A stretch of 64,000 nucleotides of DNA from Candidatus Saccharimonadota bacterium (lineage in GTDB: Bacteria > Patescibacteriota > Saccharimonadia > Saccharimonadales > AQU-01). Each line of letters begins with the position of its first letter. Position 1 is the stretch's first letter. The notes beneath the pieces are model-generated. The model was not told the DNA's origin and ran no database searches. It saw only the letters and a list, made by a program, of their open reading frames with translations. A program made the position numbers and the translations under genes. Location: assembly GCA_037137935.1 (NCBI GenBank), contig JBAXJI010000001.1, forward strand, positions 1,771 through 65,770, read 5' to 3'. This document shows, piece after piece, positions 4,414 through 45,109 of the stretch.

Positions 4414-5868
4414 ATGTTCAAGAAGTTGCTATCTAATTTACCTTATAGTCCAGGCCTTATTGATGAGGTCGCTTTTTATGCCAAGCGTCTTCGTAGGGAG
4501 ACTATTGTGCGTCGAACCGGATTTATCTTGATCATCCTTACCGTGTTTATACAGATGTTCGCCTTAATTAGCCCTCCACAAGCATCATTAGCGCAGTCCA
4601 ATAATGACTTGATTAACGGAGGCGTAAGATCGGCTGAAGATGCTATCAACAACTGTCGCTCTAGTAGCTCTGACTACGCTGATATACTGGCGAACTTTAA
4701 TATTGATTGTGCTGACTTGGCGAATGCCAAAGATGTTAAGCTCGACTCCAAAGACTTTCACGGCGAACTCTATACCACCGGCCGCCTAGCTTACGGTAAA
4801 GCCGGCGAAACTCCGCTAAATATTAAGGCAAAGACTTACTGGTTGCGCAAATTATCTGATTACGACAACGGCTCAACCAAACACGATGCCCTTCTCGTCA
4901 CCAACAAAGACGGTCAGAAGTTTTATATAGTTAAAGATTGTGGTGGTGGCCTGACATTCGTCGGCATTCCACCCACTCCAAAAGCAAAATGCGAATGGTC
5001 TGCGTCTCTGTTATCTACCGACCCTAAATGCTCCGAGCCCTGCCCTATTGCCAGCAAAAAAAACATAGCCAAGACTAGTTCTGAATGTTACGAGGCTTGT
5101 CCGGTCAAAGGTAAATCTAATATAAAGTCCAATAATGTCGCTTGTTTCGAGCCCTGCCCTTATAGAAGCAAAGAGGCTTACGCCAAAAACTCCAGCAGCT
5201 GTTTCGAGCCTTGCACATACAACAGCTCACTCACAGCCACTAGTAGCGACTGTAAGCCATGTAAGAGCTCTCAGACGCGTGAAGATAAAACATCCTGCCT
5301 GAGACTCGGCAAGACGGTCAAAAACGACACCAGCAAGCTAAATAACGCCAACGGATCTACCGCTAAGCCTAATGACGTGCTCACCTACACTTTATCCGTC
5401 ACCAACGACGGTGACTCGTCCATCAAAAACTTCGTTGTCCAAGAAAATATAAGCGACATACTCGACTACTCCGACATCTCACAGACTAGCGGCGGAATAA
5501 TCAATAAAAATATTATTAGTTGGCCAGCCGAGGATATTGGTGGTGGCAAAACCTTGGTCAAGAATTTTAGCGTCAAGATAAAGAACGCACTTCCTGCAAC
5601 GCCTGTTTCGGCTAGTGATCCAAATCATTATGATTTAAAGATGACAAACGTGTATGGAACTTCTGTGACCGTAAAACTACCTCCCTCAGTCATCAAAAAT
5701 ATCGAAATAACGACCAAAATACTACCCAACACTGGCGTCAAAGGCAGCTTAGCTATTTGCTTCGTATTACTGGTCTTGGCCGGCTACTTCTTCGCTCGAT
5801 CACGCTTAATGTTGAGAGAACTAGCAATAATTAAAGCCGACCATCATGACGGCGGGGAGTCTTACTGA
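4414..5868 (+). CDS. Sortase-anchored (LPNTG) cysteine-rich surface protein with a DUF11-like repeat domain
   Basis: N-terminal TM/signal segment. Central about 20-aa Cys repeats (C-x-EPCP...). The segment NDVLTYTLSVTNDGDSS resembles the conserved DUF11 repeat. C-terminal LPNTG is followed by a hydrophobic stretch and an RSR tail. Confidence 0.6.
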   Translation: MFKKLLSNLPYSPGLIDEVAFYAKRLRRETIVRRTGFILIILTVFIQMFALISPPQASLAQSNNDLINGGVRSAEDAINNCRSSSSDYADILANFNIDCADLANAKDVKLDSKDFHGELYTTGRLAYGKAGETPLNIKAKTYWLRKLSDYDNGSTKHDALLVTNKDGQKFYIVKDCGGGLTFVGIPPTPKAKCEWSASLLSTDPKCSEPCPIASKKNIAKTSSECYEACPVKGKSNIKSNNVACFEPCPYRSKEAYAKNSSSCFEPCTYNSSLTATSSDCKPCKSSQTREDKTSCLRLGKTVKNDTSKLNNANGSTAKPNDVLTYTLSVTNDGDSSIKNFVVQENISDILDYSDISQTSGGIINKNIISWPAEDIGGGKTLVKNFSVKIKNALPATPVSASDPNHYDLKMTNVYGTSVTVKLPPSVIKNIEITTKILPNTGVKGSLAICFVLLVLAGYFFARSRLMLRELAIIKADHHDGGESY

Positions 5869-6430: not shown

Positions 6431-9400
6431 CTAGTTGTTTCGATCGATATTGATGACATGCTCTGTGTGCGTTGATGCAGGAGTAGTTTTGCCTAGATGA
6501 AGTTCGCCGTTATGGACTGGCTCTGGACTAACTTGGGCTGGAACAGGTTGAGCGGCGTTATGGTTTAGGCTCTCTCGCAATTCGGCGGCAACACCTGCTA
6601 TCTCCTTATCCTCAAGCTGAGAACTGGAGATATTAGTTGTTGTGGTGGCTGGGTGCGTAGTTTCTGTAAAAGGAAGCCTATGGGCGCTGTCACGGGTCAA
6701 AGACTCGCTATCATCTTGATCAGTAGCTATGAATTTGGAATCATGGCGATCAATTTGAGGTGAAATAGTCGCAGTGTCTGGGGTGGCGGCTGGAATATTA
6801 TTGGCTGCAACGACTGGACTATTGCTGGCCACAGGCGCTACCGGTAATGGTGTTGGTGCTATCGGCGGTTGAGGCTGACTGGCCTGTGGCGCAACAGATG
6901 GCTTGGCAGGCTGCCCAGCGCCTGCAGGAGTGACTGTTTGACGCTTAGTTAACCAATCATCCAAAAACGACGGTGCAGGAGCTCCAGGCGCTCTTGGAGG
7001 CGCGGTAGGGGCTGGACTAGCTGGCCTTTGACCACCAACTGAAGCAGCGGGCGTTGGAGCCTCTACGGTTTTAAGTCTGGCAAATATTTCTTTCTCTATC
7101 TGATCCTTAGCTCGCCCAAATTTTGCTGCCGACAATTGTTTAAGCGCCTTACCTAGTTCTAAATTAGCTGACCCTAGTGGAGGCAAAGTAGCCATGCTGA
7201 AGGATTGCGTCGGAATACCGCCAATCAACATCTGTGTAATAGTGTTAAAGTTTGGAATACGCAACACATCCTCGCGTTCAAAAATTGGCGAAAACTTCTT
7301 GCTCAAACTGTCAGCATCAGCATCCGACCCGACACGGAAAGACACAGTCGTACCAACGTTACCAAATACGGCATCACGAATCTCATCTGTTAACTGAGTA
7401 GTGAATTGGTTGGCAACGATCAAGTTAAGGCGATACTTTCTGGCCTCTGACATGATTGTGGCAAAAGAATCTGTGGCAAAGTTCTGGAACTCATCAACAT
7501 ATAGACAAAAATCTTGTCGATCGTCCTCATAAATATCGGCTCGGCTCATGGCGGCAGCTTGGAACTTCATAACAAAAATCATACCCAACAGTTTTGAGTT
7601 CAACTCTCCTGTACGCCCCTTAGACAAGTTAACGAATAGGATCTTTTTATTATCCATAATGTCTCTAAGGTTGAATGAGCTCTTCTGCTGACCGATGATA
7701 TTACGCATCATCTCGTTAGACAAAAACGCACCGAACTTACTCACAACCCAGCTTGTGACCTCACCTGCCTCGTTTGACTTCTGTGAGTTCGGCCACTCTT
7801 TGGTCCAGAAATCTAACACGTTACGATCGGTCACGTACTGCAACTTAGCTTTCATAAACTCTGAATCAATCAGTAGTTTTGGAATATCGACGAAGGTTCC
7901 ACCCTTAGGATCAGCCATTAGAAGTAAGGCGCTATTGGTGAATATACGCTCAAACCTAGGCCCAATTATTCCCTGCTTTTGTGGGTCATACAATTTATAA
8001 AGCATGTTGATGGATTCTTGAATCAAAAAGTCCTTCTGCTCAGGAGCGTAGAACTCAAACAGGTTTAGACCCATTGGGAAATCCATGTCGGATGGGTTGA
8101 AGTAGACAATATCCTCGGTGCGTTCCTTCGGAACCATAGACATAAGGTTGTCTACTGTGTCACCGTGAGGATCAACAAAAGCGAACCCCCTACCCGCTAG
8201 CATGTCCTGAAGTGCCAAATTTTCTAGAAACACCGACTTTCCTGTACCCGTCTGTCCAACTACATACATGTGGCGACGGCGGTCCTCTAGACTCAACCGT
8301 ATAGGCTTTTTGACGCCACGAAACACATTGTAGCCAAGCATCAGGCCGTTTTCGGGCATATTGCGTGGACCATCAACCTGCTTAGAGGCTTGACGAGCAA
8401 GCTGTGTAGTAGGTATATTCTTGTGATCTGGGAAGTGAAATAGCGTAGCTAATTCAACAGAGTTTAGAATATTCTTATTATTCTCTTGCGGGAAAAATCT
8501 CATAATAAATGCTGTGGCAAAACTTTCTATATCTGCAGCGTCAGTGTATTTGAAACCGTTTTTGCCAGGCGCATCAAATAAAGAAAACGCAGCCACCATA
8601 CTGCTCTTAATAGCTTGTGCCTTTTGCGGATTATTAGAAGATGCAATGACACGAATCAAGACTTCAAATCCAGGGTGCCTTGTCTTGTCATCTATGGCGT
8701 CAACTATCTGCTGATCAAGAGCTGACAACTGTTTTGTCTGAGACTTTTCACTAGTACCACCGACATGCTCGGGAGGTCGCCAAAGTGCTGCTGGAACTTG
8801 GCGCCACCAACCAATCGTAGAACTGTTAAATTTAGTTTTACTGCTCTCGCCACCGCGCTTCTCAGAAGAAACAGATTGCGACTGCTTGCGCCAATCGTCA
8901 TGCGCTGGCCTCATCAATAGCTGGATTCCCGCTCCGTCGTCCTTATCTAATGTAGACAACGAGTTCAAAATCGACTGCATGGCGTCGCGCTTTAGCTCTT
9001 GATAAGTAGCAATTGGATAAGCAAAATTCTCTTTTAATGTAAGCTCACCGCCAGCAGTCCCACTAATCTTACCGATTGGACTAAATATATTGTGTTCAGC
9101 AACTTCTTCTAGCTGAGCGGTCGGGTAAGCACTGTTTACAGCCTGCTTCACGACCTCAACTAACGCTATCGGCACAGCGGCGTAAAAGCTAACAATTCCC
9201 TTGCTCGCTATGATTTCAAAGCCAAAATGACGCTGTCCGTAAAACTTATTCTTGAACGAGGCCTTCTGGATTGTGCTAGCAATAATGCCATAAAGAACCT
9301 GAGATTTAGATATATTCTCGTCAATCAAATCGCGCACATCGCGGCCGTTTTCGTGATTATCTTCACTAAGTGGCGGCAAGTGTATAAGCATCGGGACGAC

Positions 9401-15868: not shown

Positions 15869-15899
15869 ACACCGCCTTTTAGGGGCGGTGTTTTTATAT
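15869..15899. terminator. Bidirectional intrinsic terminator between convergent rplT and rnpB
   Basis: ACACCGCC-tttta-GGGGCGGTGT is flanked by an A-run upstream and TTTTTAT downstream, so both strands have U-tracts. Confidence 0.65.
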
Positions 15900-15901
15900 A
15901 T

Positions 15902-16270
15902 GCCAGATGATCTGTAAGCCGGGTTCTGTCCTCGTTTGCACGAGTTCTGATCATCTATCTAGGCCTAAAATTGCTCTTAGGCTCGAGCGGGTTTTGTGAA
16001 TTGCCTCGGCGGGACGCCTTATATGAGACATATCTCCTTGCAACGTACTGGGTTTACCTTCGTCTCATGTCACCATGAGATGCTGTGAGCTCTTACCTCA
16101 CTCGTTTCATCCTTACCGTCAGTCTTTCGACTGCTTAGGCGGTTTAGTTTCTGTGGCACTTTCCCTAGGGTTGCCCCCGGTCGCCGTTAGCGACAGTACT
16201 TCCCTGTGTTGCCCGGACTTTCCTACCGACCATTGTTGCCAATAGTCCGTCGATCAGTCGATTATCTGGC
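15902..16270 (-). ncRNA. rnpB: RNase P RNA (bacterial type A)
   Basis: The reverse complement contains GGAAAGTCCGGGC (P4 5' strand), GGGAAAGTGCCACAGAAA, GGTAAGAGCTCAC and the 3' ACAGAACCCGGCTTA (P4 3' strand). The terminal P1 pairs GCCAGAT with ATCTGGC. Confidence 0.85.
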
Positions 16271-24498: not shown

Positions 24499-24575
24499 GG
24501 GCGATTAGCTCATTTGGCTAGAGCGCCACATTGACGTTGTGGAGGTGAAAGGTTCGAATCCTTTATCGCCCACCA
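24499..24575 (+). tRNA. tRNA-Val (anticodon GAC), CCA encoded
   Basis: Acceptor GGGCGAT/ATCGCCC. D-stem GCTC/GAGC. Anticodon stem CCACA/TGTGG with loop TTGACGT. T-arm AAAGG-TTCGAAT-CCTTT. 3' ACCA. Confidence 0.8.
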
Positions 24576-24595
24576 GATTAGATTTTCATATTTAT

Positions 24596-25336
24596 ATGCC
24601 CTCTATTGAACACGATTCATTTACTGCTACAACTGTTAATACTCATTATGGCCGCGCAATTGCTACCGCCGATGCCGCACGAGACTTTATTGGTAGCGAC
24701 ATTTTATTAATGCAAGAAGTTTTAGATATTGACGAAAAAACTATTGCCAGAAATTTAGGCAGCATTGGCCTGTCAATTGTCTCGATTAACCCAACTACTG
24801 GTCTAGCGATTGCTGTGTCGGAGCGTTTTAAGCCTACCGGTAGTCAACAATACAGTCTTAAACCACAGAGTAAACTAGCTGGCGTCACAAATGCAGTCGG
24901 CCTGAAGCCTAGGTTTCGTAAGCGCGGGGTGATAGTCGCTAGTCTTGAGACTGACGGCCAATCGCTGGCAGTCGCTACAGCATCGCCAATTGTGGCCGCT
25001 CGACCAATCAGTCGTAGCCAGCAAATTAATAAAATGTCAGATTTAATTGCTGAAAATTTTGCCTCAGGACCACTGATTCTCGGTGCTGATATGAACCACT
25101 ACCCAGCCCCTAATAAAGTCGACAAACAAATGGCCAATCGGTTGCAGCTCAAATATGTCGATAACACCGATCCAACTTATTTTTTGAATGGCACAAAACA
25201 CGCTTGGCTAAAACATTTAGGCCTACCGGATGGTCGACTCGACGCCCTACTTTATCGAAATTTAACAGAGATAAACAGCTCAACTAAAACCGTTAAATCA
25301 GATCACGACGCACTCAGTGGAACTTTCGAATTTTAA
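24596..25336 (+). CDS. Endonuclease/exonuclease/phosphatase (EEP) family protein
   Basis: Motifs LLMQEV, LILGADMNH and SDHDALSGTF match the EEP catalytic signature. The ORF-track start at 24539 overlaps the tRNA, so ATG at 24596 (MPSIEHD...) is preferred. Confidence 0.6.
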   Translation: MPSIEHDSFTATTVNTHYGRAIATADAARDFIGSDILLMQEVLDIDEKTIARNLGSIGLSIVSINPTTGLAIAVSERFKPTGSQQYSLKPQSKLAGVTNAVGLKPRFRKRGVIVASLETDGQSLAVATASPIVAARPISRSQQINKMSDLIAENFASGPLILGADMNHYPAPNKVDKQMANRLQLKYVDNTDPTYFLNGTKHAWLKHLGLPDGRLDALLYRNLTEINSSTKTVKSDHDALSGTFEF

Positions 25337-25374
25337 TAATTTAACGAGATGTTCTGGAACGCATAAGTCTTTCC

Positions 25375-26520
25375 CTAATTCGAACTACGCAGGTTGTTGT
25401 AGGTGTCGATAATAATTGGTTGACTATCACTACCTTCGCTACTAAAACTTAATTTTAAGAATATAGCACTGCAGTTGTCTTGGTTTAATAAAACATAGTT
25501 CGTACAGATAAAACTGACAATTTCTGACTTAACTCTCAGGTTACCGATCAGAGTCTGTTTGGTTTGTTTAGAAAAGATTTCTTTTGCAGAGTAATTTATA
25601 TTACCAATTCCGTAGGCCGTAACTAGTTTTATTGGCCAGATTGAGTCACTTCTAAATGATTCCAGACCAGAAGCTAAGCTTAACTCACCAGATACTATTT
25701 GCATACGAGCTTGTGAAAATGTCACATTAATTACTGGCTCTTCAGCATTATTAGTCACTGTAACCCCACTGCTCGCCTCGTATTCGCTAAACAACCGCGA
25801 GAATGGCTTGAGAGTTTTGGTTGGAGCTGTAGCCTGAAGGCTAGTGATTTTGATTGCGCAGTCCGTATAATACAATCCCATGATATTTTGATGACTAATT
25901 GGGTCCTGCTTCAAGTCAGTTTTTTTGGCATTGCAAAAATTTAAGGCTCTAACCTTAAAATAGTAGCCCTTATGATAGAAAGCGAACTGGCCAGAAATTG
26001 GTATGGTCTTAGATTGGTTAAACTTACTAATTAAATCCGGGTCGCTAAAAACTAAATCGAGGTGGTCTTTGGTGATGTCATCAAACTGAATAATAGTTTC
26101 GTCTGCTAGAGCATAACGCTCGCCACGGTTGACTACCAGCGTCCGCTCTTTACCAAGTGCCAACTTTTGTAACTCGGTATTTACTGTTGTGGTGCTAGTT
26201 TGTTGTGGAGAATTAGTTCCATTATTTATCGAGTCAATTTTTGAAATTATAGTAGAGAAGTTCACGCTTTTTAAGGAAAAATGAAAAATGTACGAACCCA
26301 AAATTATTAAAATAATAACCGCAGCCACAGTATTTACTTTAGCCTTAAAAGACCACCACTTATGTTTTATTTTTTGCTCGACGATTATTTGGCTAGATAT
26401 ATCAGGTTGCGAAACTGAATAAAGATTATCGGTTACGTTAGTAGGCTGACTGTCTAGTGGTGATATTTCATCTTCATCTTCATTTTGATAATCGGCCAAC
26501 GCTCTCGGTTGCTCGCTCAT
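25375..26520 (-). CDS. Hypothetical membrane-anchored protein
   Basis: 381 aa. A single TM helix near residue 60, then an extracytoplasmic domain. No motif recognised. Confidence 0.35.
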   Translation of the reverse strand: MSEQPRALADYQNEDEDEISPLDSQPTNVTDNLYSVSQPDISSQIIVEQKIKHKWWSFKAKVNTVAAVIILIILGSYIFHFSLKSVNFSTIISKIDSINNGTNSPQQTSTTTVNTELQKLALGKERTLVVNRGERYALADETIIQFDDITKDHLDLVFSDPDLISKFNQSKTIPISGQFAFYHKGYYFKVRALNFCNAKKTDLKQDPISHQNIMGLYYTDCAIKITSLQATAPTKTLKPFSRLFSEYEASSGVTVTNNAEEPVINVTFSQARMQIVSGELSLASGLESFRSDSIWPIKLVTAYGIGNINYSAKEIFSKQTKQTLIGNLRVKSEIVSFICTNYVLLNQDNCSAIFLKLSFSSEGSDSQPIIIDTYNNLRSSN

Positions 26521-26687
26521 AGTTCAAATTGTAGCATAACCACAAATCAGAAAATTCCTTGTCATACTGATCGATAGTATATATTCTTCACGATCCTACG
26601 TTAAGCAGCGCTTCATTAACGAAGAAACAAAATTGAGACCATGTGCCCTAGATTTCTGGACAATAACTCTTTCCGGGCTGAAAGATT

Positions 26688-27632
26688 TTATTTGATAATT
26701 TGATCTTTAATATAGATGTCGCTAATTATTTCGAGAACTTTTTCGCTATGGTTAGTATCAATTAGACCAATTAAGCTATAAATTAACCTAGCTTTTAGTA
26801 GCATCAATAGAGACGACTCAACCTCTGCTATCAATTTTGGCTGATTGATTTCGATAATAAGTTTCTTTAGGTACCCAGATCTAACTAGATTCAAGCCTTT
26901 TGTGTCAATATTTAACATTACTGTCATCACCATATCTTCCAAAAGATAGCTGTATCTATAGTCATCAAAATCCAGTAAATAAAGCTGACCAGAATCTGAA
27001 ACAATCATGTTTTGCAGCTTAATATCGCCATGTATATAGCCTTTTGTTAGTTTAGGTATAGCGTGACTCGATATCTTAACTTCCTGATATAGTTTATGAA
27101 TAACAGAGGCGATTTGATCATCTTGGTGGTTAGTCGATAATAAGTAGCGTTGATAGCGTTCTTCGGCGCGTGACACTATATCTAGCCCCTCCGTCATTGA
27201 TTCAACTTTAAAATATGAAGACATAGTAAAAATTTTACCTAAAACATCAGCCAACTTGGCAATTAAATTGTCGTCGAAAGTTGTAGGATTTGCCCCAGAA
27301 ATAAACCTCATTATCACCAAAAAACTAAAGTTATCTTCTTGAAGTGCAACATAGTATTGCCCTAGCCTGTTCTTAACAACATCTGGAACATATATCCCTT
27401 TCTGCATTTCTGTCATAAACTTGAGTTCATTTTTTATGGATGAGGCGTCACGAATACCTTTTGCAGAATGAGTTTTACCGTATAATCGCGCTACGAACGT
27501 TGTGTCAAAAGATTTAAAAAGATAATTCTTGTTTTCAGCCCCACCTTTCAACTCAACGAATGTCGCAACATCGGAATCTATGTCAAAACTTTTTAGGATG
27601 ATTTGTTTTAATTTATTCTTGTCCATTTGCAA
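26688..27632 (-). CDS. Phosphotransferase enzyme family protein (APH/choline-kinase-like kinase)
   Basis: HGDIKLQNMIV (Brenner HGDxxxxN motif) and LLDFDD (DFD) motifs. Confidence 0.6.
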   Translation of the reverse strand: MQMDKNKLKQIILKSFDIDSDVATFVELKGGAENKNYLFKSFDTTFVARLYGKTHSAKGIRDASSIKNELKFMTEMQKGIYVPDVVKNRLGQYYVALQEDNFSFLVIMRFISGANPTTFDDNLIAKLADVLGKIFTMSSYFKVESMTEGLDIVSRAEERYQRYLLSTNHQDDQIASVIHKLYQEVKISSHAIPKLTKGYIHGDIKLQNMIVSDSGQLYLLDFDDYRYSYLLEDMVMTVMLNIDTKGLNLVRSGYLKKLIIEINQPKLIAEVESSLLMLLKARLIYSLIGLIDTNHSEKVLEIISDIYIKDQIIK

Positions 27633-31546: not shown

Positions 31547-31852
31547 CTAACTCTGCTTCGACTGAGTCTGATTACGACGAGCTTGAGTACTTAGCGCTTC
31601 AAAAGTTAGCGCCATAGTCTCGCTCATCAAACGGCGCACTGATATATCCTCACTAGAAGACATAATAAAACCACCAAGAACTCTCAAAAGTTCTGGTTGA
31701 GTATCGCGCATACCTTCGTGAGACAGTTTAATCAATGCTGGCAAATCAGAGTTCATGCCTTCAAAAATCTCCACAGCAACAGGAGCTTCCACTATTGGAA
31801 GATGATGTGGTCTAGGATGATTAGTCGGGCGCTCTTGAGGATTAGGCAACAT
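31547..31852 (-). CDS. Hypothetical protein
   Basis: 101-aa ORF. Confidence 0.3.
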   Translation of the reverse strand: MLPNPQERPTNHPRPHHLPIVEAPVAVEIFEGMNSDLPALIKLSHEGMRDTQPELLRVLGGFIMSSSEDISVRRLMSETMALTFEALSTQARRNQTQSKQS

Positions 31853-32010
31853 ATTACATAAATAATATCACCTTAATACTATAAGGGTCAAGATTATGCT
31901 TTAGTAGTATTATTTGCGGGGCTCGAGCGGATAGCGTTAAGTAAACTTTCGCAACCTCAAAACTAGTCTTGAGGTTGGTTTTAACATCAACATAATTTAG
32001 AAGTATGGGC

Positions 32011-32775
32011 CTATTTTATTACTGAGGGAGTTATACCGGCAATATCTTCTTTATCTAAATGTGATCCTTGTTCCTTCAATTTTAGGGCTTGGGCAATACG
32101 GTTATAAGCCACAACTCGCGCCATCTTATCTTCTAGTGCCTCCACAGATGACAATATAGTCTCAATATCTTCAGTACCTGTTAGCGTCTCGCTAACCAGT
32201 GCATCTATCGTTTGTTCGTCCTCTTCCCCGACCTGCACAACAAACATCGGGGTATCTAGATCAGCCTCAGGGCGTTCTTCAGAAAAACGGGTCTGCATAT
32301 GCTCTATTAATGCATCTTTCGATATCTTCTCGTCATCAATCCCTTCCAAAAGCTCCATAAGATACCCTTCAGCACCAATTTTACGTGCTGTATCACAAAG
32401 CTTGTCTATGCTATTCAATGCGACTTTTTCGGCAGGATCACGATATTTACGACCATAACTGCCCATTGAATCAGCATTTAAGATATTGCCTTTTACGGCT
32501 TGTAATTGGGCATCTAGGTACTTTGGGTCACCAGAAACCAACGCTAAGACACGAGCGGCGTTTGATTGGCCATGATCCAATCTTTCGTGAAGTTCGCTCG
32601 ATGCACGTTCATTTCCGTTTACGACTAAATATCCCAAGATCTCATTGCCACCAGGTTCGTAATCTTTTTCCGAAATACTATGCACGGCAAGCCATTCGGC
32701 ATTATCAATAGGGTTCATAGGCTCTGCTAGAGCTTCATCTAGTGGTTTTTCTTGACTATCTGTAATACTTTCCAT
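32011..32775 (-). CDS. Hypothetical acidic protein (cassette 1 of tRNA-Asp array)
   Basis: 254 aa. Bounded by the degenerate core at 31915 and the repeat at 32819. Confidence 0.4.
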   Translation of the reverse strand: MESITDSQEKPLDEALAEPMNPIDNAEWLAVHSISEKDYEPGGNEILGYLVVNGNERASSELHERLDHGQSNAARVLALVSGDPKYLDAQLQAVKGNILNADSMGSYGRKYRDPAEKVALNSIDKLCDTARKIGAEGYLMELLEGIDDEKISKDALIEHMQTRFSEERPEADLDTPMFVVQVGEEDEQTIDALVSETLTGTEDIETILSSVEALEDKMARVVAYNRIAQALKLKEQGSHLDKEDIAGITPSVIK

Positions 32776-32818
32776 GAGGTAAATAATAGCACTACCTTAA
32801 TAAAAGTCAAAACAATGC

Positions 32819-32895
32819 TCGACCGGATAGCGTCGGGCTTGCTCGCAGGCTAACCAGCCTGCGGCTTCCGCAAAAGCATCCTAGGTCGCAAATGT
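32819..32895 (-). repeat. tRNA-Asp 3'-end-derived att-like repeat + conserved arm
   Basis: ctcgaccggatagcgtcgggc...gcaggctaaccagcctgcggcttccgca. Confidence 0.7.
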
Positions 32896-32910
32896 TTTTA
32901 GTAAGTTACA

Positions 32911-34101
32911 TTAGAATTTATTCTTGTAGCAGAGCTCACCAGCGTCATGACGATTATAACTCTCATAAGCTGAGTAGCCATCAGTATCAATATTATTGAC
33001 CGAATAGTATGCGACATTAAAGTCTTTACTTTTCTTCTTGTAGTCCACACATAGTTTGTAATAGTAATTGTAAACAGGAACTTGTGGATTAGTGTCGTTA
33101 AATATTCTATAGGTATTAGTAGTACTAGAGGTATTAGTAGTACTAGTTATTTTGGATGGAGTGCCGTTACTATTTGGAGTATAACGCACCAGATTTCTGT
33201 CTATAATACTCTTCACATCACCTTGAGCATCCATTTGGCTCAATGTTTCAGGCAGTTTATTATTTTTACGTATGTAGACTTTTATTGCGGCATCGACACC
33301 CGTAAGATTTGATTCTAATAATTTATCATCACGCGTTAACCTAGCATTTGCCATTGGGCCAAAAATTCCTAATAAACAGATGATACCGACTGTTACCGCA
33401 ATAAATATCAAAAATGCCCGACGAACCCAAGGGAATTTGACTGGATTTAGTGTTCTCAAAAACACTGAAGCATAAATGACGGCAATGATTATCGAACTAA
33501 ACAGTGTAATTTGGGCGCCTGTTTTGTCGCCGCTAGACGTAAACATCTGAACCATAGAGAATGCTGCGCCAATTATCGCTCCAATACCAAATAGTGCAAA
33601 TATAACTGCGTGAATAATCATGACCGCCATGGCAGCACCAGTTTTCTTGACCTCTTCACGTTTGGTGAATAGTACATCGCAAATTACCGATATTGGAAGC
33701 AGCACGAGTACTGCAGCGATACCGTAAGGCGTGAAGCCGTCAGTACTCACATCTCCAATAAAAGTGGCAATAATAGTACTAACAAGTACGGATAGCGCCA
33801 ATACTGTCCATCCCCAAAAAGCATACGTAAGCCATTCGAGCACAATAATTCCTGCACCTGCAGATTCCTTTGCGAGAACTTGCTGAGGAACGTTTGTGGC
33901 AGACTGCTGGCTTGATAAGCCTTGCGATGGCTGCGCTACTAGTGGTTGAGGCGTCGCGATCGGGCTACTTACTGGTGCTACAACTTCAGCTGCTTGGTAG
34001 CTATTTAGAGTTTCGATTGATGGCGCGGGATTTGTCTGGTCAATATTAGGCGGCGCGGCAGGTTCTAGCGAATGAGGAATCGGATTTATGTCCATAAGCA
34101 C
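32911..34101 (-). CDS. Hypothetical polytopic membrane protein with Pro/Ser-rich N-terminus (cassette 2)
   Basis: 396 aa. At least 6 TM helices. Thr-rich C-terminal extracellular domain. Confidence 0.4.
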   Translation of the reverse strand: MLMDINPIPHSLEPAAPPNIDQTNPAPSIETLNSYQAAEVVAPVSSPIATPQPLVAQPSQGLSSQQSATNVPQQVLAKESAGAGIIVLEWLTYAFWGWTVLALSVLVSTIIATFIGDVSTDGFTPYGIAAVLVLLPISVICDVLFTKREEVKKTGAAMAVMIIHAVIFALFGIGAIIGAAFSMVQMFTSSGDKTGAQITLFSSIIIAVIYASVFLRTLNPVKFPWVRRAFLIFIAVTVGIICLLGIFGPMANARLTRDDKLLESNLTGVDAAIKVYIRKNNKLPETLSQMDAQGDVKSIIDRNLVRYTPNSNGTPSKITSTTNTSSTTNTYRIFNDTNPQVPVYNYYYKLCVDYKKKSKDFNVAYYSVNNIDTDGYSAYESYNRHDAGELCYKNKF

Positions 34102-34185
34102 AAGTATAATACACCTTAGGTTAAATAGACATTACATTAATTTTAAAACTTACCAAATCCAGAAACAATATTCAGGTCGTAAATA

Positions 34186-34300
34186 CCTGCCCGGATAGCG
34201 TCTGGCCTATGGCGCCGGCTAACCAGCCTGCGGCTTCCGCAAATTAGCTTAAGCCCCAACCGCCGGTTCAGCCTTTTTAGAAACTCGACCGGATAGCGTC
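34186..34300 (-). repeat. Two adjacent att-like repeat copies (one degenerate)
   Basis: ctgcccggatagcgtctggcc...ggctaaccagcctgcggcttccgca... then ctcgaccggatagcgtcggtagc. Confidence 0.65.
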
Positions 34301-34347
34301 GGTAGCTATTTTTTAGTCAACTCTCACACAATAGTCTTAGATGCAAT

Positions 34348-34824
34348 TTAGCTTCCAAACACCTGTTGTGCAATCACTACTTGATAAATATCTTTTTTTT
34401 GTTCAGCAGGAGGCAATTGGTCGAACGGAACATCAAGTTCACCGCCCTTAGCCCACTCGTTACGTGACATCCATGCGTCGTGAATAATAGAACCCACACT
34501 ACTGCGTTGTTCAGGGTTTTTAAGATCAATTTGAGCGTCTTTGTCCATCATCATACCTACCACAACTTCAGACGCGGCCTTGTTTTCTGCCTGCCAATCA
34601 CTAGGTAAGCTGTCGTATGCTGTATTTGCAATATCTACTTGGTCAGTACCATTTGCCGCAATCCATGCTTCATCCTTAGTGGACTTAACTCTAGGCTCAA
34701 ACGATCCATCTTCCTGTAGACGTGTTTTACGCCAATCTTCGTGCAAGGCCCCTGCTAGCTTATAAACTGCTGCTGCAACTACTTCTAACGGATCTGCACT
34801 TTGTGGTTCTTTTTCATCATTCAT
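34348..34824 (-). CDS. Hypothetical protein with two RyR-domain-like repeats (cassette 3)
   Basis: HEDWRKTRLQEDG... and IHDAWMSRNEWAKGGELDVPFDQLPPAEQKKD resemble the bacterial/phage RyR domain signature (W..GW/ lvpydeLpe.eK). Confidence 0.35.
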   Translation of the reverse strand: MNDEKEPQSADPLEVVAAAVYKLAGALHEDWRKTRLQEDGSFEPRVKSTKDEAWIAANGTDQVDIANTAYDSLPSDWQAENKAASEVVVGMMMDKDAQIDLKNPEQRSSVGSIIHDAWMSRNEWAKGGELDVPFDQLPPAEQKKDIYQVVIAQQVFGS

Positions 34825-34917
34825 CTTATGAATTTTCCTCTATGGTTAATTTTATTAAACTTAGTCTAATATTAGCCTAATGCTTATGTATTTCAAATCC
34901 CAGTGTTTGATGTGAGT

Positions 34918-35080
34918 TCGACCAGATAGCGTCTGGCCTTCGGCGCAGGCTAACCAGCCTGCGGCTTCCGCATATTAGCGGAACCGCAGCCGCCAGTTCA
35001 AATCACTGGCGACCCTGCCCAAAGTAAAAGACCAGTCATTCGACTGGTCTTTTACTTTGGCGGGCCGTAGCGGGAGCTGT
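34918..35080 (-). repeat. att-like repeat (ttcgaccagatagcgtctggcc...) plus an 18-bp perfect hairpin terminator
   Basis: Conserved arm gcaggctaaccagcctgcggcttccgcatattagcggaaccgcagccgccagttcaaatcactgg. Hairpin AAAGTAAAAGACCAGTC-attc-GACTGGTCTTTTACTTTG. Confidence 0.65.
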
Positions 35081-35086
35081 CCGGAA

Positions 35087-35410
35087 CTACTTCTCAGGTT
35101 CTGTACTAGAGAAAGAAGCGTTCAATGCGTCAGCGCCTGCCTGGCGTTCTAATAGAACCAGTGTTCCCACTAGCACTTCAAACATTGGTTGATGAAGCTC
35201 GCTAGGGTACTTGCCGACTTGCATTTCAATAAAAGCAACGAGATTAGGGTTGGTTGCCATAACCTTATTTTGCATCTCAGTTAATCGTTCACCCCAAGCC
35301 TGACCATCACCGTTATTATTTGTATACTGACTTTTTAGGGCTTCTAATGTTTCGCCAGATATAACTGGGATACTAGCCTCGTCTGATGGCTGTTTTTCAG
35401 AATTATCCAC
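35087..35410 (-). CDS. Hypothetical protein (cassette 4, distal gene)
   Basis: 107 aa. Overlaps the upstream ORF by 8 bp. Confidence 0.35.
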   Translation of the reverse strand: MDNSEKQPSDEASIPVISGETLEALKSQYTNNNGDGQAWGERLTEMQNKVMATNPNLVAFIEMQVGKYPSELHQPMFEVLVGTLVLLERQAGADALNASFSSTEPEK

Positions 35411-36149
35411 GGCTAACTACCCCTTTCAAAAGACTTTTGACAGTGCGCTTAGGTGGAATGGCTTGCGAGATTTCTGGCGTACCAGAACCAAGCTGAACGG
35501 TACCGTCAGACATTCGACGACGGATATCTACAGCCATTTCCTTGGCTTCGGCAATCTGTTCTTCACTCATACCACGCTGACGTTGAGCTTCAACAATGTC
35601 TCCGATATTCCAAGCAGGCAAACCACGAGCAAAAGCTACAGCAAGCTGGTGAGTATTGAGGCCTTGCAACGTACCAGCCTTGTTGGCTACAAGATGATGG
35701 TCGTGTGACACGGCGGCGTCTATAAGGGTTCCTGAAAGCTGAACACCACGACTGCCAGCTTCTTCAATATCTTGAACTGGTTCATACCACATCTCCCAAT
35801 CCTTTGGCACTTGACCGCTAAAGTGCTGCTTCCAGGCAAGCTCCCAACGCTTCGAAACAATGTCACGACTAAGTGAGCCACGGGTTCGGTCCTCATCCCA
35901 ATGCGGGTTGTTCTTGTACCATTCAGCTCTACTCGCAATATCATCTTCAGCAACAGAGTGTTCTGTTGACGGATCAAATATGTATACGCCATCCGTAAAC
36001 ATACTGCGCTCTAAATCGCTAACATTAGGATTGGCAAGAGTTTCTTTTACTGGCGAGGCCAGAACTAGCTCTAGGTTTTCTGATTTAGGTTTTTGTGTTT
36101 CAGGCAATGTCATAGTTTGTATACTAGCATAAGCTTGTTGATTTGTCAA
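35403..36149 (-). CDS. Hypothetical protein (cassette 4, proximal gene)
   Basis: 248 aa. Confidence 0.4.
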   Translation of the reverse strand: MTNQQAYASIQTMTLPETQKPKSENLELVLASPVKETLANPNVSDLERSMFTDGVYIFDPSTEHSVAEDDIASRAEWYKNNPHWDEDRTRGSLSRDIVSKRWELAWKQHFSGQVPKDWEMWYEPVQDIEEAGSRGVQLSGTLIDAAVSHDHHLVANKAGTLQGLNTHQLAVAFARGLPAWNIGDIVEAQRQRGMSEEQIAEAKEMAVDIRRRMSDGTVQLGSGTPEISQAIPPKRTVKSLLKGVVSRG

Positions 36150-36320
36150 TCTGATGCGCGCCGGCTAACCAGCCTGCGGCTTCCGCAAAGTTAGCCTAAG
36201 CCGCAGCCGCCGGTTCAGTATTCTTAGAAACTCGACCGGATAGCGTCGGGCTAGCGCGCCGGCTAACCAGCCTGCGGCTTCCGCAAAATAGCGGAACCGC
36301 AGCCGCCGGTTCAAATCCGA
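36150..36320 (-). repeat. Two tandem copies of the conserved arm with a central att-like core (ctcgaccggatagcgtcgggc)
   Basis: gcgcgccggctaaccagcctgcggcttccgcaaa... occurs twice. The second copy ends gccgccggttcaaatccg, identical to the tRNA-Asp T-arm. Confidence 0.7.
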
Positions 36321-36439
36321 AGAGACGCGTGCAAGAAAAAAGCCCCAAACCCTTCGGGGTTGAGACTTTTATCTTGGCGGGGCATGGAGTCGGATTTTAG
36401 AACTAAATTGTTAGAAAATTAGTCATCTTCACTGTGAGT

Positions 36440-37372
36440 TTATTTGAAGCTATCTGGATCTTCATATATACCAAGCTTTTCAAGCTCTTTTCTAGCTTCT
36501 ACTGGATCGACTATTTCCTCTACAATCCTACGTGCTAAACGATTAAACCATTCTTTTGTGCGTTCACTAAGTTCTAGCTTGTATACTCCTTGCTCTACAA
36601 GCGCTTCAGTAATCATAGTTCTCGTTATTTTACTAAGCAGTGGGGTCATGTCAGACGGCACGTCTAAAGAACTTTCTTCTTTAAAATTATTTTCCCTGCG
36701 CTCTTGTGTAATATCTGATTCTGTTAAAATTGGGTACTCGTCGCTTACGGCATTCGGGGCATTTATGTTGTTTAAGGCTCCAGATCGAATATGAACAGTA
36801 ATAGATAAATCAAATGGTCGACGGCTATCTTCTGATGGCTTCTCGGCGAATAATTCATATCTTATTCCGTTTAAAGAATTGCTATCGGCGTACACCTCCA
36901 CCCAAGAGAAATCTGGGTGATCGACCTCTCCAGAATAGCTGATGAATCTACCACTATGATTGCCGTAAATTGCATCTTGAAGGTCTTGAACGTAGAATAA
37001 TCGTTCCAATTCATCTGTTCTGTGCTTCATTGCATCTAAGGTTGTAGGTTCGGGATCGGCAAAGTTTGAACTAATAGGCCATATACTTCGTACAAGATCA
37101 CGCCCAGTTAAACCGTCTTTTGAATTTCGCTCAAGACGACTGACAAGTCCTTCACGTACTGCTGCAATGGCCTCGTCTGAACCACCAACTAAACCAGCTG
37201 ATCTGAATGTATGTGATTCTGGTTCAAACAGTCTGCCCATGACTTCATCTACGCTGGCAGGTAAATCTACGTCAATGTTTTCGGGACTCGACTGACTAAT
37301 TGCATTGAGCCTAGACTCGATGCTAAGTGGAGCTTGATCTTGATCGGGGTTCGAGTCGTTGGGTACGCTCAT
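36440..37372 (-). CDS. Hypothetical protein (cassette 5)
   Basis: 310 aa. An intrinsic terminator (AACCC-cgaa-GGGTT GGGGC TTTTTT on the minus strand) lies at about 36335-36360. Confidence 0.4.
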   Translation of the reverse strand: MSVPNDSNPDQDQAPLSIESRLNAISQSSPENIDVDLPASVDEVMGRLFEPESHTFRSAGLVGGSDEAIAAVREGLVSRLERNSKDGLTGRDLVRSIWPISSNFADPEPTTLDAMKHRTDELERLFYVQDLQDAIYGNHSGRFISYSGEVDHPDFSWVEVYADSNSLNGIRYELFAEKPSEDSRRPFDLSITVHIRSGALNNINAPNAVSDEYPILTESDITQERRENNFKEESSLDVPSDMTPLLSKITRTMITEALVEQGVYKLELSERTKEWFNRLARRIVEEIVDPVEARKELEKLGIYEDPDSFK

Positions 37373-37502
37373 TTTTACCTTTTTTATTTTTTAATTTAAT
37401 TATTAGTCTAGTTATTATCTTAGCATTAAAGTTTGTATATGTCAAGTACGTGTGGTTGTTAGGAGACAAGAAGAAAAACACTTCTTAAAAGAAGTGCTTA
37501 TG

Positions 37503-37610
37503 CTTGGCGGGCTCGACCGGATAGCGTCTGGCTTGCTCGCAGGCTAACCAGCCTGCGGCTTCCGCATATTAGCTTAAGCCGCAGCCACCGGTTCAAATCG
37601 CTGGCGACCC
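37503..37610 (-). repeat. att-like repeat with a perfect 19-bp tRNA-Asp 3' core (ttggcgggctcgaccggat) + conserved arm
   Basis: ttggcgggctcgaccggatagcgtctggcttgctcgcaggctaaccagcctgcggcttccgcatattagcttaagccgcagccaccggttcaaatcgctgg. Confidence 0.75.
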
Positions 37611-37670
37611 TGTCCACAACAAAATAACCGCCCATAATGTGAGCGGTTATTAAGTTGAGGAATCTGGTTA

Positions 37671-37994
37671 CTAGAGACCTTTGACTTTGTCGTAAATCTC
37701 AGCAGCCTGTCCAGCCTGATTGTCAGCTTCTGTCCGTGCAGCCTGTGCTTGCTCGGCTTGCTGAGTAGATGCGCGTACTGGACCTCTGTTTTCAATATCT
37801 CGGAATCTCGTATTGCCGATATTGCTTGCGGCTTCTAAGGCAAGACCACGGGCATGAACAACTGCTTCTTCTGCAGCCTTAGAGGCATAAGCCATAATCT
37901 CAGCTTTATGTGGGTCTACTACGGCGTTAGGGTGTTCCTGCAGGTAGTCTACTGGCTGTTCTGGCTGTTGAGAAATTGGTTCTTGTTCGCTCAT
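37671..37994 (-). CDS. Hypothetical protein (cassette 6)
   Basis: 107 aa. A terminator hairpin AATAACCGC...GCGGTTATT lies downstream at about 37615-37650. Confidence 0.35.
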   Translation of the reverse strand: MSEQEPISQQPEQPVDYLQEHPNAVVDPHKAEIMAYASKAAEEAVVHARGLALEAASNIGNTRFRDIENRGPVRASTQQAEQAQAARTEADNQAGQAAEIYDKVKGL

Positions 37995-38134
37995 TGTTAT
38001 AATTCCTTACTTAAATTATTATTTATTATTTGTTTTAGGTTATTGAACCTTAGCAACATACTAGCATGACCATGTTGATTTGTCAATAATTCTTAGCGCT
38101 TACAAGAAGCACATCTTTCAGAATTATTATGCTT

Positions 38135-38282
38135 GGCGGGCTCGACCGGATAGCGTCTGGCCTCTGGCGCAGGCTAACCGGGCCGTGACCTCGGCAAAAT
38201 TAGCCGAGTCACTTGCGCCGGTTCAAATCGCAAGTCAAAGACTTGCCCAAACAAAAAGCCCCATCAAAGATGGGACATTTTG
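38135..38282 (-). repeat. att-like repeat (perfect 19-bp core) + divergent arm + terminator of tRNA-Asp
   Basis: ttggcgggctcgaccggatagcgtctggcc...ccggttcaaatcgcaag... then minus-strand CCCATC-tttg-ATGGGG CTTTTTGTTT immediately 3' of tRNA-Asp. Confidence 0.7.
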
Positions 38283-38284
38283 TT

Positions 38285-38360
38285 TGGCGGGCTCGACCGG
38301 ATTTGAACCGGCGATCTCCTCCGTGACAGGGAGGCATGTTAACCACTACACCACGAGCCC
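38285..38360 (-). tRNA. tRNA-Asp (anticodon GTC), CCA encoded
   Basis: The reverse complement is GGGCTCG TG GTGT-AGTGGTTA-ACAT G CCTCC-CTGTCAC-GGAGG AGATC GCCGG-TTCAAAT-CCGGT CGAGCCC G CCA. Confidence 0.85.
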
Positions 38361-38564: not shown

Positions 38565-38604
38565 AAAATCACAAAATGTATACATTATTGACGAGCGGGT
38601 ATGG

Positions 38605-44191: not shown

Positions 44192-45109
44192 GTGATGTTA
44201 TTTAGCAAAGCAAAGACTGATTATTTGGAATATCTTGAGATTGAGCAAAATCGATCCCAGAAGACTATAGCCAATTATGATCATTATCTGACACGCTTAA
44301 TAGATTTTGCCGGAGAGATAAAAATAAGTGAAATCGATGCTGAACTTATTCGTAAATGGCGTCTCTGGCTAAATAGACTCGGCACCAACACCTCTGACGA
44401 ATTACAAAAATCGACACAGAACTATCATCTTATAGCTTTAAGAAGTTTTTTGAAGTACTGCGCTAAGCGTGACATCCCTGCCCTTACGGCTGACAAAATC
44501 GAACTCGCCCGAACCGTCCGTAAACAAGTAACATTCTTGAACGAAGACGAGCTAGACCGTCTATTTGCCCAACCCGATATCAGCAAGTTGTCTGGCATTC
44601 GTGATCGAGCAATCCTAGAGCTACTCTTTAGTAGTGGTCTGCGCGTATCGGAGCTTGTTGGGCTCGACAAAGACCATATCAACCTGAAGCGACGCGAGTT
44701 TATGGTTAGAGGTAAGGGCCAGAAAGATCGTCCTATCTTTATTAGTCCAGCAGCCGCTAAGTGGCTAAGCCACTACTTAGAAAAACGCGAAGATAATGTT
44801 AAGCCGCTATTCGTCCGTTATAGTGGCAGCAAAAAAGTTGACCTATCTGGCGACTTTCACAGATTGACTGCGCGTAGTGTCCAACGATTAGTCGCCCGTT
44901 ACGCCCTGCTAGCCGGAATAACCAAACATGTCAGCCCACACACACTCAGACACAGCTTTGCTACCGACCTAATCATGAACGGCGGTGATTTACGCGCCGT
45001 ACAAGCCATGCTAGGCCACAGCAATATCGCCACAACGCAAATCTACACCCACGTTACCGACCCTCACCTTCGTGCTATCCACGAAAAGTTTCACCGCAAA
45101 GACAACTAG
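44192..45109 (+). CDS. xerC: Tyrosine site-specific recombinase, XerC/XerD family
   Basis: N-terminal SAM-like core-binding domain (YLEYLEIEQNRSQKTIANYDHYL). The catalytic C-terminus has R...HxxR...Y (LRHSFATDLIMNGGDLRAVQAMLGHSNIATTQIYTHV). Confidence 0.8.
   Translation: MMLFSKAKTDYLEYLEIEQNRSQKTIANYDHYLTRLIDFAGEIKISEIDAELIRKWRLWLNRLGTNTSDELQKSTQNYHLIALRSFLKYCAKRDIPALTADKIELARTVRKQVTFLNEDELDRLFAQPDISKLSGIRDRAILELLFSSGLRVSELVGLDKDHINLKRREFMVRGKGQKDRPIFISPAAAKWLSHYLEKREDNVKPLFVRYSGSKKVDLSGDFHRLTARSVQRLVARYALLAGITKHVSPHTLRHSFATDLIMNGGDLRAVQAMLGHSNIATTQIYTHVTDPHLRAIHEKFHRKDN

Follow-up and report, generated by a model that had tools for sequence, protein, structure and literature searches.

Saccharibacteria (TM7) live as ultra-small epibionts whose reduced genomes contain few mobile elements that can be recognised, and their strain-specific gene turnover is poorly understood. 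Here, we describe an array of small gene cassettes in the chromosome of a freshwater lake member of this group, contained in a stretch of 64 kb (hereafter the window, meaning the whole stretch of DNA that was analysed). The array lies directly downstream of an intact tRNA-Asp(GTC) gene on the minus strand (38285-38360), detected by ARAGORN and, with 68.2 bits, by Rfam, which serves as its anchor. Neighbouring genes of the array are separated by spacers that consist of the last 11-19 bases of this tRNA (the core) and a conserved arm of ~115 nucleotides (nt). Read on the minus strand, each unit is composed of a core, the tail AGCATAA, a sigma-70-type promoter, an open reading frame (ORF), a terminator and an arm that leads into the next core, with one orphan ORF per unit and two in one case. 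The guanine and cytosine (GC) content of the array ranges from 42 to 50%, and its composition is not foreign. The locus occupies a conserved position, as the order Xer recombinase, NDK, SurA, tRNA-Asp region, 119-aa membrane protein and glycosyltransferase is maintained across Saccharibacteria; genes for a type IV pilus and a prepilin peptidase adjoin it. Literature searches yielded no description of such a locus.

The repeated sequence corresponds to the last 19 nt of tRNA-Asp, which read TTGGCGGGCTCGACCGGAT on the plus strand (38284-38302), and this 3' end recurs ten times within 31915-38151. The 11-mer CTCGACCGGAT, antisense to tRNA positions ~59-69, is found exactly at 32818, 34284, 36231, 37512, 38141 and 38292, and with one mismatch at 31922. 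Allowing up to one mismatch, the window contains 8 matches to this 11-mer versus 0.34 expected, a number reached in 0 of 100 shuffles, and seven of the eight fall within 31922-38302. The full 18-nt tRNA 3' end is preserved at all 18 positions at 38134 and 37505 and carries 3 mismatches at 31915. On the minus strand, the core reads ATCCGGTCGAG and is often prolonged to ...CCCGCCA-AGCATAA. The copies decay with distance, from 19/19 in the two nearest the tRNA to 11 nt or a variant in the middle of the array and a degenerate sequence at the far end, a gradient that fits sequential accretion at the tRNA end. The first-pass annotation of this DNA had proposed the tRNA-Asp gene and the repetition of its 3' end, and both are borne out by ARAGORN, Rfam and the counts against shuffles. 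The copy that it placed at 34275 begins at 34284, and it missed the decayed cores at 36374-36397 and 35057-35077, together with a truncated arm at ~36155-36222. Duplicates of this sort were not found for other tRNAs within the window. A retroelement primer-binding site, which would comprise 18 nt complementary to the tRNA 3' end, was considered and dropped, as most copies retain no more than 11 nt and no reverse transcriptase is present.

From the tRNA outwards, with the repeats (R1 to R7) given on the plus strand and all cassettes on the minus strand, the array begins with a two-way terminator (38258-38276) that forms an ORF-less unit (38133-38284) with R1 (38133-38250; perfect 19-nt core and an arm with the variant-B hairpin; 113.8 bits with the arm model described below). 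The c107b cassette follows (37623-38086; promoter 38086-38058, ORF 37994-37671 encoding 107 aa with an isoelectric point (pI) of 4.8, terminator 37651-37623), and then R2 (37504-37618; perfect 19-nt core and an arm with hairpin variant A2; 117.7 bits), which is preceded by a conserved TTATGC and a hairpin at 37476-37499. The c310 cassette (36440-37445; promoter 37445-37417, ORF 37372-36440, 310 aa, pI 4.5) has a 3' end (36343-36397) composed of a terminator (36343-36359) and the decayed core TTGGCGGGGCATGGAGTCGGATTT (36374-36397), beyond which lies R3 (36223-36336; 11-nt core at 36231-36241 and an arm with hairpin variant A1; 121.7 bits). Abutting R3, R3b (~36155-36222) is an arm without core and left part that ends in GGTTCAG-TATTCTTAGAAA. 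The two-gene cassette (35087-36149; promoter 36149-36121) encodes c248 (36113/36149-35403) and c107a (35410-35087), and the 3' end of the latter (35021-35077) carries a hairpin or terminator and then the decayed core TTGGCGGGCCGTAGCGGGAGC (35057-35077). R4 (34909-35023; variant core TTCGACCAGAT and a type A1 arm; 117.1 bits) separates it from the c158 cassette (34348-34896; promoter-like site 34896-34868, ORF 34824-34348, 158 aa, pI 4.5). Next come R5b (34178-34294; variant core CTGCCCGGAT and an arm truncated at GGTTCAG-CCTTTTTAGAAA; 72 bits) and R5, a core-only copy, CTCGACCGGATAGCGTCGG, at 34284-34302, the two together spanning 34178-34303. The c396mem cassette (32911-34101), encoding a 396-aa polytopic membrane protein, is bounded by R6 (32810-32885; 11-nt core and a left half-arm truncated after GGCTAACCAGCCTGCGGCTTCCGCA; 44.2 bits), followed by the uniq254 cassette (32011-32810; promoter 32810-32783, ORF 32775-32011, 254 aa, pI 4.4) and R7 (31915-31937), the outermost, degenerate core GCGGGGCTCGAGCGGATAGCGT. 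The outermost unit is c101 (31547-31891; promoter 31891-31862, ORF 31852-31547). Promoter-like sites of the form TTGACA, 16 to 18 nt, TAnnAT precede six ORFs, the strongest having a 17-nt spacer. The first-pass annotation was right in placing the ORFs between repeats on the minus strand throughout, except that the tRNA-proximal unit has none, and its statement that most cassettes have their own terminator is clear for two or three of them and weak for the remainder.

The arm is present in eight copies, all confined to the array region. Its 25-nt block GGCTAACCAGCCTGCGGCTTCCGCA has 6 exact copies in the 64 kb, all within 32848-37566, where 0 are expected, and a covariance model built from 21 distinct arms gives six matches (38133-38250, 37504-37618, 36223-36336, 34909-35023, 34178-34294 and 32810-32915) and none elsewhere in the window. 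The arm has imperfect terminal inverted repeats that lie ~65-100 nt apart: its left end matches the antisense of the tRNA 3' end exactly, and its right end corresponds, in diverged form and in the sense direction, to the T-arm and acceptor strand of the tRNA (CGCCGGTTCAAATCCG-TAGAGACGCGTGCAA versus CGCCGGTTCAAATCCGGTCGAGCCCGCCA). Pairing of the two ends is complementary in 71% of cells over 10 positions, versus 33-58% when the ends are slid, and a covariation test gives it no support. One bulged hairpin, H2, persists although its sequence differs entirely between variants A, B and C of the species and again in other genera, with compensatory changes at three pairs. The description of the arm as structured in the first-pass annotation thus holds for H2, to which covariation is limited; the remaining proposed helices hardly vary. 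The R4 arm folds into four hairpins with z = -5.8 and -6.4, far better than shuffles, whereas other copies do not reach such a margin. The evidence on the strand from which the arm acts is conflicting: at the species level, three invariant G-T wobble positions favour the plus strand, whereas distant arms, treated as RNA, fold better in the tRNA orientation (-60.5 vs -46.0 kcal/mol in L146 and -52.9 vs -43.5 kcal/mol in L148, two of the related loci compared below). A class-II tRNA-like gene on the plus strand of the arm was considered and dropped, as ARAGORN sees no tRNA or tmRNA in the arms. Truncated arms occur, reduced from the left side, from the right side or to the core only.

With two ends that both derive from the tRNA-Asp 3' end, one in antisense and the other in sense and diverged, and with ORF-less arm units in tandem beside the tRNA, the arm could be taken for a non-autonomous element of the miniature inverted-repeat transposable element (MITE) type that prefers this target, the genes in between being ordinary chromosomal ones. 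We regard this as decidedly improbable, given that all copies share one orientation and one locus, with none elsewhere in the 302 kb of related-locus DNA searched with the covariance model, that target-site duplications are absent besides the core and no transposase is seen, and that core-only junctions and arm-less arrays would be left unexplained. The same distribution separates the arm from MITE and repetitive extragenic palindromic (REP) families, including the dispersed REP family that the first-pass annotation had named as a possible refutation: every copy in the window and in the 302 kb is at the array, and the metagenome hits with recognisable flanks share the same flanks.

For comparison, we used related loci, numbered with an L, which derive from metagenome contigs; L035 is a metagenome-assembled genome of Candidatus Saccharimonas. 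The arm is also carried by L035 and 14 lake-metagenome contigs. A scan of the sequence collection with a 15-nt junction pattern returned 120 matches, of which 119 were due to chance, the pattern being too short, and L035 alone was real; a look-up of the flank protein p115 gave one cluster and no further arrays. L156, an independent assembly from another sample and assembler, is 99.86% identical to the window array over 6424 nt, with flanks 100% identical, which indicates that the window array is not an assembly artefact, and portions of the array recur in L122, L126 and L157.

Contigs whose flanks are 96-98% identical to those of the window carry other arrays (L124, L131, L136, L132, L128, L129 and others), so that the test proposed in the first-pass annotation, cassette presence or absence between cores in relatives, came out in its favour, with both content and order varying. 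From the tRNA outwards, L124 contains two arms, c310, an arm, c158 and c101, and L136 an arm and cX24; L131 contains cX36, an arm, c396mem, an arm, c158 and c101, and L132 cX24, an arm, c107b, an arm and cX38. The c396mem cassette lies on the tRNA side of c158 in L131 and on its far side in the window, c107b has four different distal neighbours across the loci, and uniq254 was found, among the compared loci, only in the window and its independent re-assembly (L156/L160). In the sister lineage (L035 and L137-L139; flanks 88-94% identical), a short array, seen in four assemblies, contains c158 and a 105-aa ORF only, and in L035 and L137 that different ORF takes the position of c101. ORF-less arm units stand in tandem beside the tRNA in L124, L134 and L035, spaced by 143-153 nt. 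Many contigs end in or near arms and some contexts were seen once, as would be expected if collapsed repeats or mixed strains had created the diversity, but this explanation is very improbable considering the recovery of the full array from a different sample and assembler, the short array in L035, L137, L138 and L139, and several junctions seen twice, namely c101-c158 (L124 and L131) and cX36-c396mem (L129 and L131).

Two other variable spots were observed in these genomes. At 24539-27632 of the window, tRNA-Val and the tRNA-guanine transglycosylase gene enclose three genes with 35-40% GC, which encode an endonuclease/exonuclease/phosphatase-like protein, a 381-aa orphan and a member of the aminoglycoside-phosphotransferase family; in the sister lineage L137, this interval holds a single 146-aa ORF, and no tRNA-Val 3' duplicate was found. 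Between tRNA-Thr and tRNA-Gly, which are separated by 30 nt in the window (38565-38594), L035 carries (4466-4617) an ORF-less insert of ~125 nt straight after the CCA of tRNA-Thr, whose final bases, ...TTCCGGTCGACGGCTCC, duplicate the 3' end of tRNA-Thr. A second tRNA thus bears a footprint of this type. An ordinary bacterial class A RNase P RNA (15899-16269, 254 bits) is unrelated to the array.

At least 17 cassette ORF families were seen across the compared strains, and their products are mostly acidic and soluble, with one polytopic membrane protein. Searches of 19 cassette ORFs against Pfam, NCBIfam, PADLOC and PHROGs, which include the profile searches recommended in the first-pass annotation, found nothing significant. 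Its suggestion of defence cargo was not upheld by PADLOC, PHROGs or Pfam, and the 158-aa protein that it called RyR-like had no Pfam match at E<=0.09. The c310 protein belongs to three clusters among 5.8 billion proteins, and c248 to a family of 122 clusters; a confident predicted model of the latter is all-helical and has no informative structural neighbour, and would represent a new all-helical fold. Interaction with hosts or phages is a candidate role for the cargo proteins. Cassette alleles diverge far more than the flanks do, with protein identities of 53-98% for c310 and 62-91% for c107b; protein differences between alleles of the same cassette reach 47%, compared with DNA differences of 2-4% for the flanks.

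The clearest junction is that between c101 and c158. L124 and L131 read c101...GCGGGGCTCGAGCGGATAGCGT-CGGTGGCTAT...c158 with no insertion, while the window has 2.37 kb extra (uniq254, c396mem and their arms) between CTCGAGCGGATAGCGT|TAAG and CTCGACCGGATAGCGT|CGGT. A 16-nt direct repeat, CTCGA(C/G)CGGATAGCGT, borders this insertion, with R7 as its left-hand and R5 as its right-hand copy. The two copies differ by a single nucleotide, a G that remains on the side of the left flank, which would place the exchange within CGGATAGCGT. In L134 (~1886-1975), another junction has CTGGCGGGCCCGAACGGATTTGCCCGGGG in place of core and arm, which is antisense to a diverged tRNA-Asp-like 3' end.

These observations lead us to propose, with a probability of about one half, that integrase-less mini-cassettes have been accreted and shuffled site-specifically at a site that mimics the tRNA T-arm, with homologous exchange between arms in addition. 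Under this interpretation, which is drawn from sequence comparison, cassettes would be gained, lost and reshuffled by conservative site-specific recombination, possibly passing through free circular forms, with the crossover within the 16-nt block CTCGACCGG-ATAGCGT. This block would mimic the geometry of the T-arm: CCGG, a 7-nt spacer and CTGG, compared with CCGG, 7 nt and CCGG in the tRNA (ACCGG-ATAGCGT-CTGGC and ACCGG-ATTTGAA-CCGGC, respectively, on the same strand). Site-specific excision would leave precise joints inside CTCGACCGGATAGCGT or CCGGTTCAAATC. The enzyme would be encoded outside the array, and homologous exchange between the near-identical arms of ~115 nt would be superimposed, generating mosaic arms. 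ATAGCGT is invariant as the 7-nt spacer of the pseudo-T-arm in all window arms, and TAGCG is kept in the arms of L145, L146 and L148. The spacer (e.g. 38149-38155) may also resemble CS-6 (TAGCGT) in the hairpin loop of ssoA, a single-strand origin of rolling-circle plasmids.

The earlier proposal of site-specific integration into the tRNA is thus supported by the presence/absence polymorphism, the 16-nt direct repeat and the decay of the cores, but the junctions are not confined to the core, and several points weigh against such a mechanism. When shared cassettes were systematically extended outwards, breakpoints were also located at GGCTAACC and around CGCCGGTTCAAATC, the second T-arm-like inverted repeat at the far arm end, as well as at the outer edge of decayed cores; the three invariant blocks in the arm alignment coincide with the three breakpoint zones, and A/B hybrid arms are present among the loci. 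One recombination site alone does not predict several breakpoint zones and hybrid arms: either several sites are used, or homologous exchange or conversion between arms is overlaid on site-specific exchange. The 16-nt direct repeat could equally reflect a microhomology deletion in the other lineage, and chimeras across the 115-nt repeats are possible for contexts seen once (e.g. L128), as contigs often end at arms. The spacer ATAGCGT of the proposed site differs from the T-loop ATTTGAA of the tRNA on the same strand, which makes it hard to see how the tRNA would act as a recombination partner, and the T-arm-like hairpin at the far arm end is inverted relative to the tRNA. Scans of the at least 17 cassette ORF families with Pfam and NCBIfam profiles revealed no recombinase domain in any array. 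An attP-bearing phage or plasmid matching the site was not found in IMG/VR (three patterns), GenBank phages or PLSDB plasmids, where arm and core had no match, nor was an integrase-bearing partner element on the same att site found in those collections, the window or ~300 kb of related loci.

The absence of a recombinase from the arrays is compatible with homologous recombination alone, in which the arms would act as portable homology blocks of ~115 nt for RecA-type exchange or conversion following DNA uptake, which would also run through the conserved flanks, with no dedicated recombinase or site. Breakpoints in all three invariant arm blocks and A/B hybrids are also what this would produce, L132 and L133 share the same cassette order yet differ in the entire inner part of one arm in a manner resembling gene conversion, and the adjoining type IV pilus and prepilin-peptidase genes would suit it too. 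Nevertheless, we consider that homologous recombination is rather unlikely to be the whole explanation. At several junctions (R7 and, in three contexts, the 3' side of c158), the shared sequence amounts to just 16-19 nt, which is short for RecA-dependent exchange, and the blocks at which arms switch between A and B measure 8-16 nt. Likewise, the arm-less cores of 19-22 nt in L153 still separate different genes, and the repeat is the exact tRNA 3' end, perfect beside the tRNA, a hallmark of integrases.

As for the enzyme that site-specific exchange would require, the only tyrosine recombinase in the window is an Xer-type gene on the plus strand (44192-45109), 5.8 kb from the array, in agreement with the first-pass annotation, which had found no recombinase within the array and only this gene nearby. 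Its product scores 133.3 bits on TIGR02249 (cut-off 265) and 83.8 on NF011946 (cut-off 435), and best as XerC/XerD/XerA. It is the only candidate in view and might act from a distance, but the gene is syntenic across the phylum, and its proximity to the array is therefore weak evidence and possibly meaningless. In addition, a crude search for dif-like CATAA-N6-TTATG (<=1 mismatch) found it at no core or arm, the sole match in the region being at chance level inside c158; as the dif of this phylum may differ, this is a weak test, though one that also counts against Xer as the enzyme. Modules that exploit Xer are known, such as the pdif modules of Acinetobacter plasmids and CTX-phi, in which two inverted copies of the target pair in single-stranded DNA and the host Xer is used. 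The array resembles these integrative mobile elements exploiting Xer (IMEXs) and pdif modules in consisting of small modules without a recombinase, with an Xer-type gene as the only one nearby, and CTX-phi in its inverted copies (~90 nt apart there, ~65-100 nt here). It differs in that the site is a tRNA 3' end rather than a dif-like 11-6-11 sequence, the orientation is uniform and the pairing of inverted copies lacks covariation.

The same layout extends to other genera, where the glycosyltransferase of the flank is ~69% identical. In L145, L146 and L151, tRNA-Asp is followed by a terminator, an arm of ~130 nt, a core that matches the local tRNA-Asp, a promoter and an ORF, and L145 has two such units, its arm being detected by the covariance model with E=1e-4. 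In L153, a c310 homologue with 52% identity and a 277-aa ORF are set apart by arm-less cores of 19-22 nt, and the decayed core after c310 is identical in the window and the genus of L153. L145 keeps CCGGTTCAAATCACTGG despite its own tRNA T-loop being TTCGAAT, which suggests that the motif is conserved independently of the tRNA. The tail after the core at 37476-37503 of the window (CCA-AGCATAAG, the hairpin CACTTC...GAAGTG and a T-run) is shared with L151, after its core at ~6342, and is thus conserved in another genus though outside the tRNA-derived sequence. Irregular tRNA-Asp copies were also noticed: L144 (1265-1556) has a second copy upstream of the functional one, with interruptions of 72 nt behind the anticodon loop and ~100 nt within the T-loop, and L147 (~8750-8850) a partial duplicate.

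Conservation of this kind might instead point to arm and core as a structured, partly tRNA-like RNA or cis element involved in processing or insulation, the shuffling being a side effect. The maintenance of H2 through different sequences with three compensatory pairs, the persistence of motifs across genera irrespective of the local T-loop, the common tail of the window and L151 and the better folding of distant arms in the tRNA orientation would all be in line with this. Yet such a role appears improbable to us: Rfam 15 recognised nothing but tRNA in the window array and the L145 arms, at gathering score or even at E<=10, the upstream terminator lies too close to the arm to leave space for a promoter, the strand evidence conflicts and covariation is seen in one hairpin. 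Moreover, truncated and core-only copies are tolerated, and the duplication of the tRNA 3' end would remain unexplained.

Considering known systems, the array behaves like a miniature, trans-dependent tandem accretion at a tRNA site with an integron-like outcome. Cis-mobilizable elements (CIMEs) are integrase-less elements flanked by att sites at tRNA 3' ends that accrete in tandem. As in these, direct repeats identical to the tRNA 3' end bound the segments, the tRNA is intact, no integrase is present, outer sites are decayed and polymorphism has its junction at the att repeat. Unlike CIME-type islands of 10-100 kb, the array units measure 0.15-2 kb and hold one or two genes, they carry a module of ~115 nt with a covarying hairpin that other genera retain, and their order is also reshuffled. 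The chromosomal integrons of Vibrio share with the array a one-directional arrangement of mostly single ORFs, imperfect palindromes of ~115 nt with a hairpin that persists as its sequence changes, variable content and order and a fixed anchor. They differ in that the array has no IntI and no R''/R' boxes, that promoter and terminator belong to the cassettes themselves, that a tRNA gene serves as anchor and that breakpoints fall in several parts of the repeat. The array is not an integron by any of the defining features tested (IntI, attC boxes and promoterless cassettes), and the integron-like array suggested by the first-pass annotation is not one in this sense. A remnant in the form of a cluster of attC sites lacking an integrase (CALIN) would account for the Vibrio-like units of single ORFs in one orientation with imperfectly palindromic repeats. 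It is nonetheless extremely improbable, as the number of RYYYAAC...GTTRRRY pairs 50-140 nt apart on either strand of 31900-38300 is 0, with 1.1 expected from shuffles, the Xer-like protein reaches 133 bits against a cut-off of 265, the cassettes are self-promoted and the repeat holds a tRNA 3' end.

More ambitiously, the locus might represent an independent integron-like capture platform in Saccharibacteria and perhaps in other lineages of the candidate phyla radiation, although we regard this broader proposal as unlikely. In such a platform, the T-arm and 3' end of tRNA-Asp would play the part of attI, and the arms, with two inverted imperfect copies of the tRNA 3' end and a structure-conserved hairpin, would fold to mimic it, as integron attC and CTX-phi attP do. 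A housekeeping Xer-type or other recombinase encoded elsewhere would then exchange single, self-expressed genes.

One fixed and easily recognised site, recurring in several genera, concentrates at least 17 orphan gene families in a handful of strains. Core and arm could be used as anchors for cassette PCR and read mining, as attC is for integrons, which would open up the variable genes of uncultured TM7 populations. Should the exchange be site-specific, the array would constitute a minimal integron-like solution without an integron integrase, and tRNA 3' ends would then act as attachment sites for cargo as small as a single gene. If, in addition, the capture platform proves true, it would be a main route of accessory-gene flux in these minimal genomes.

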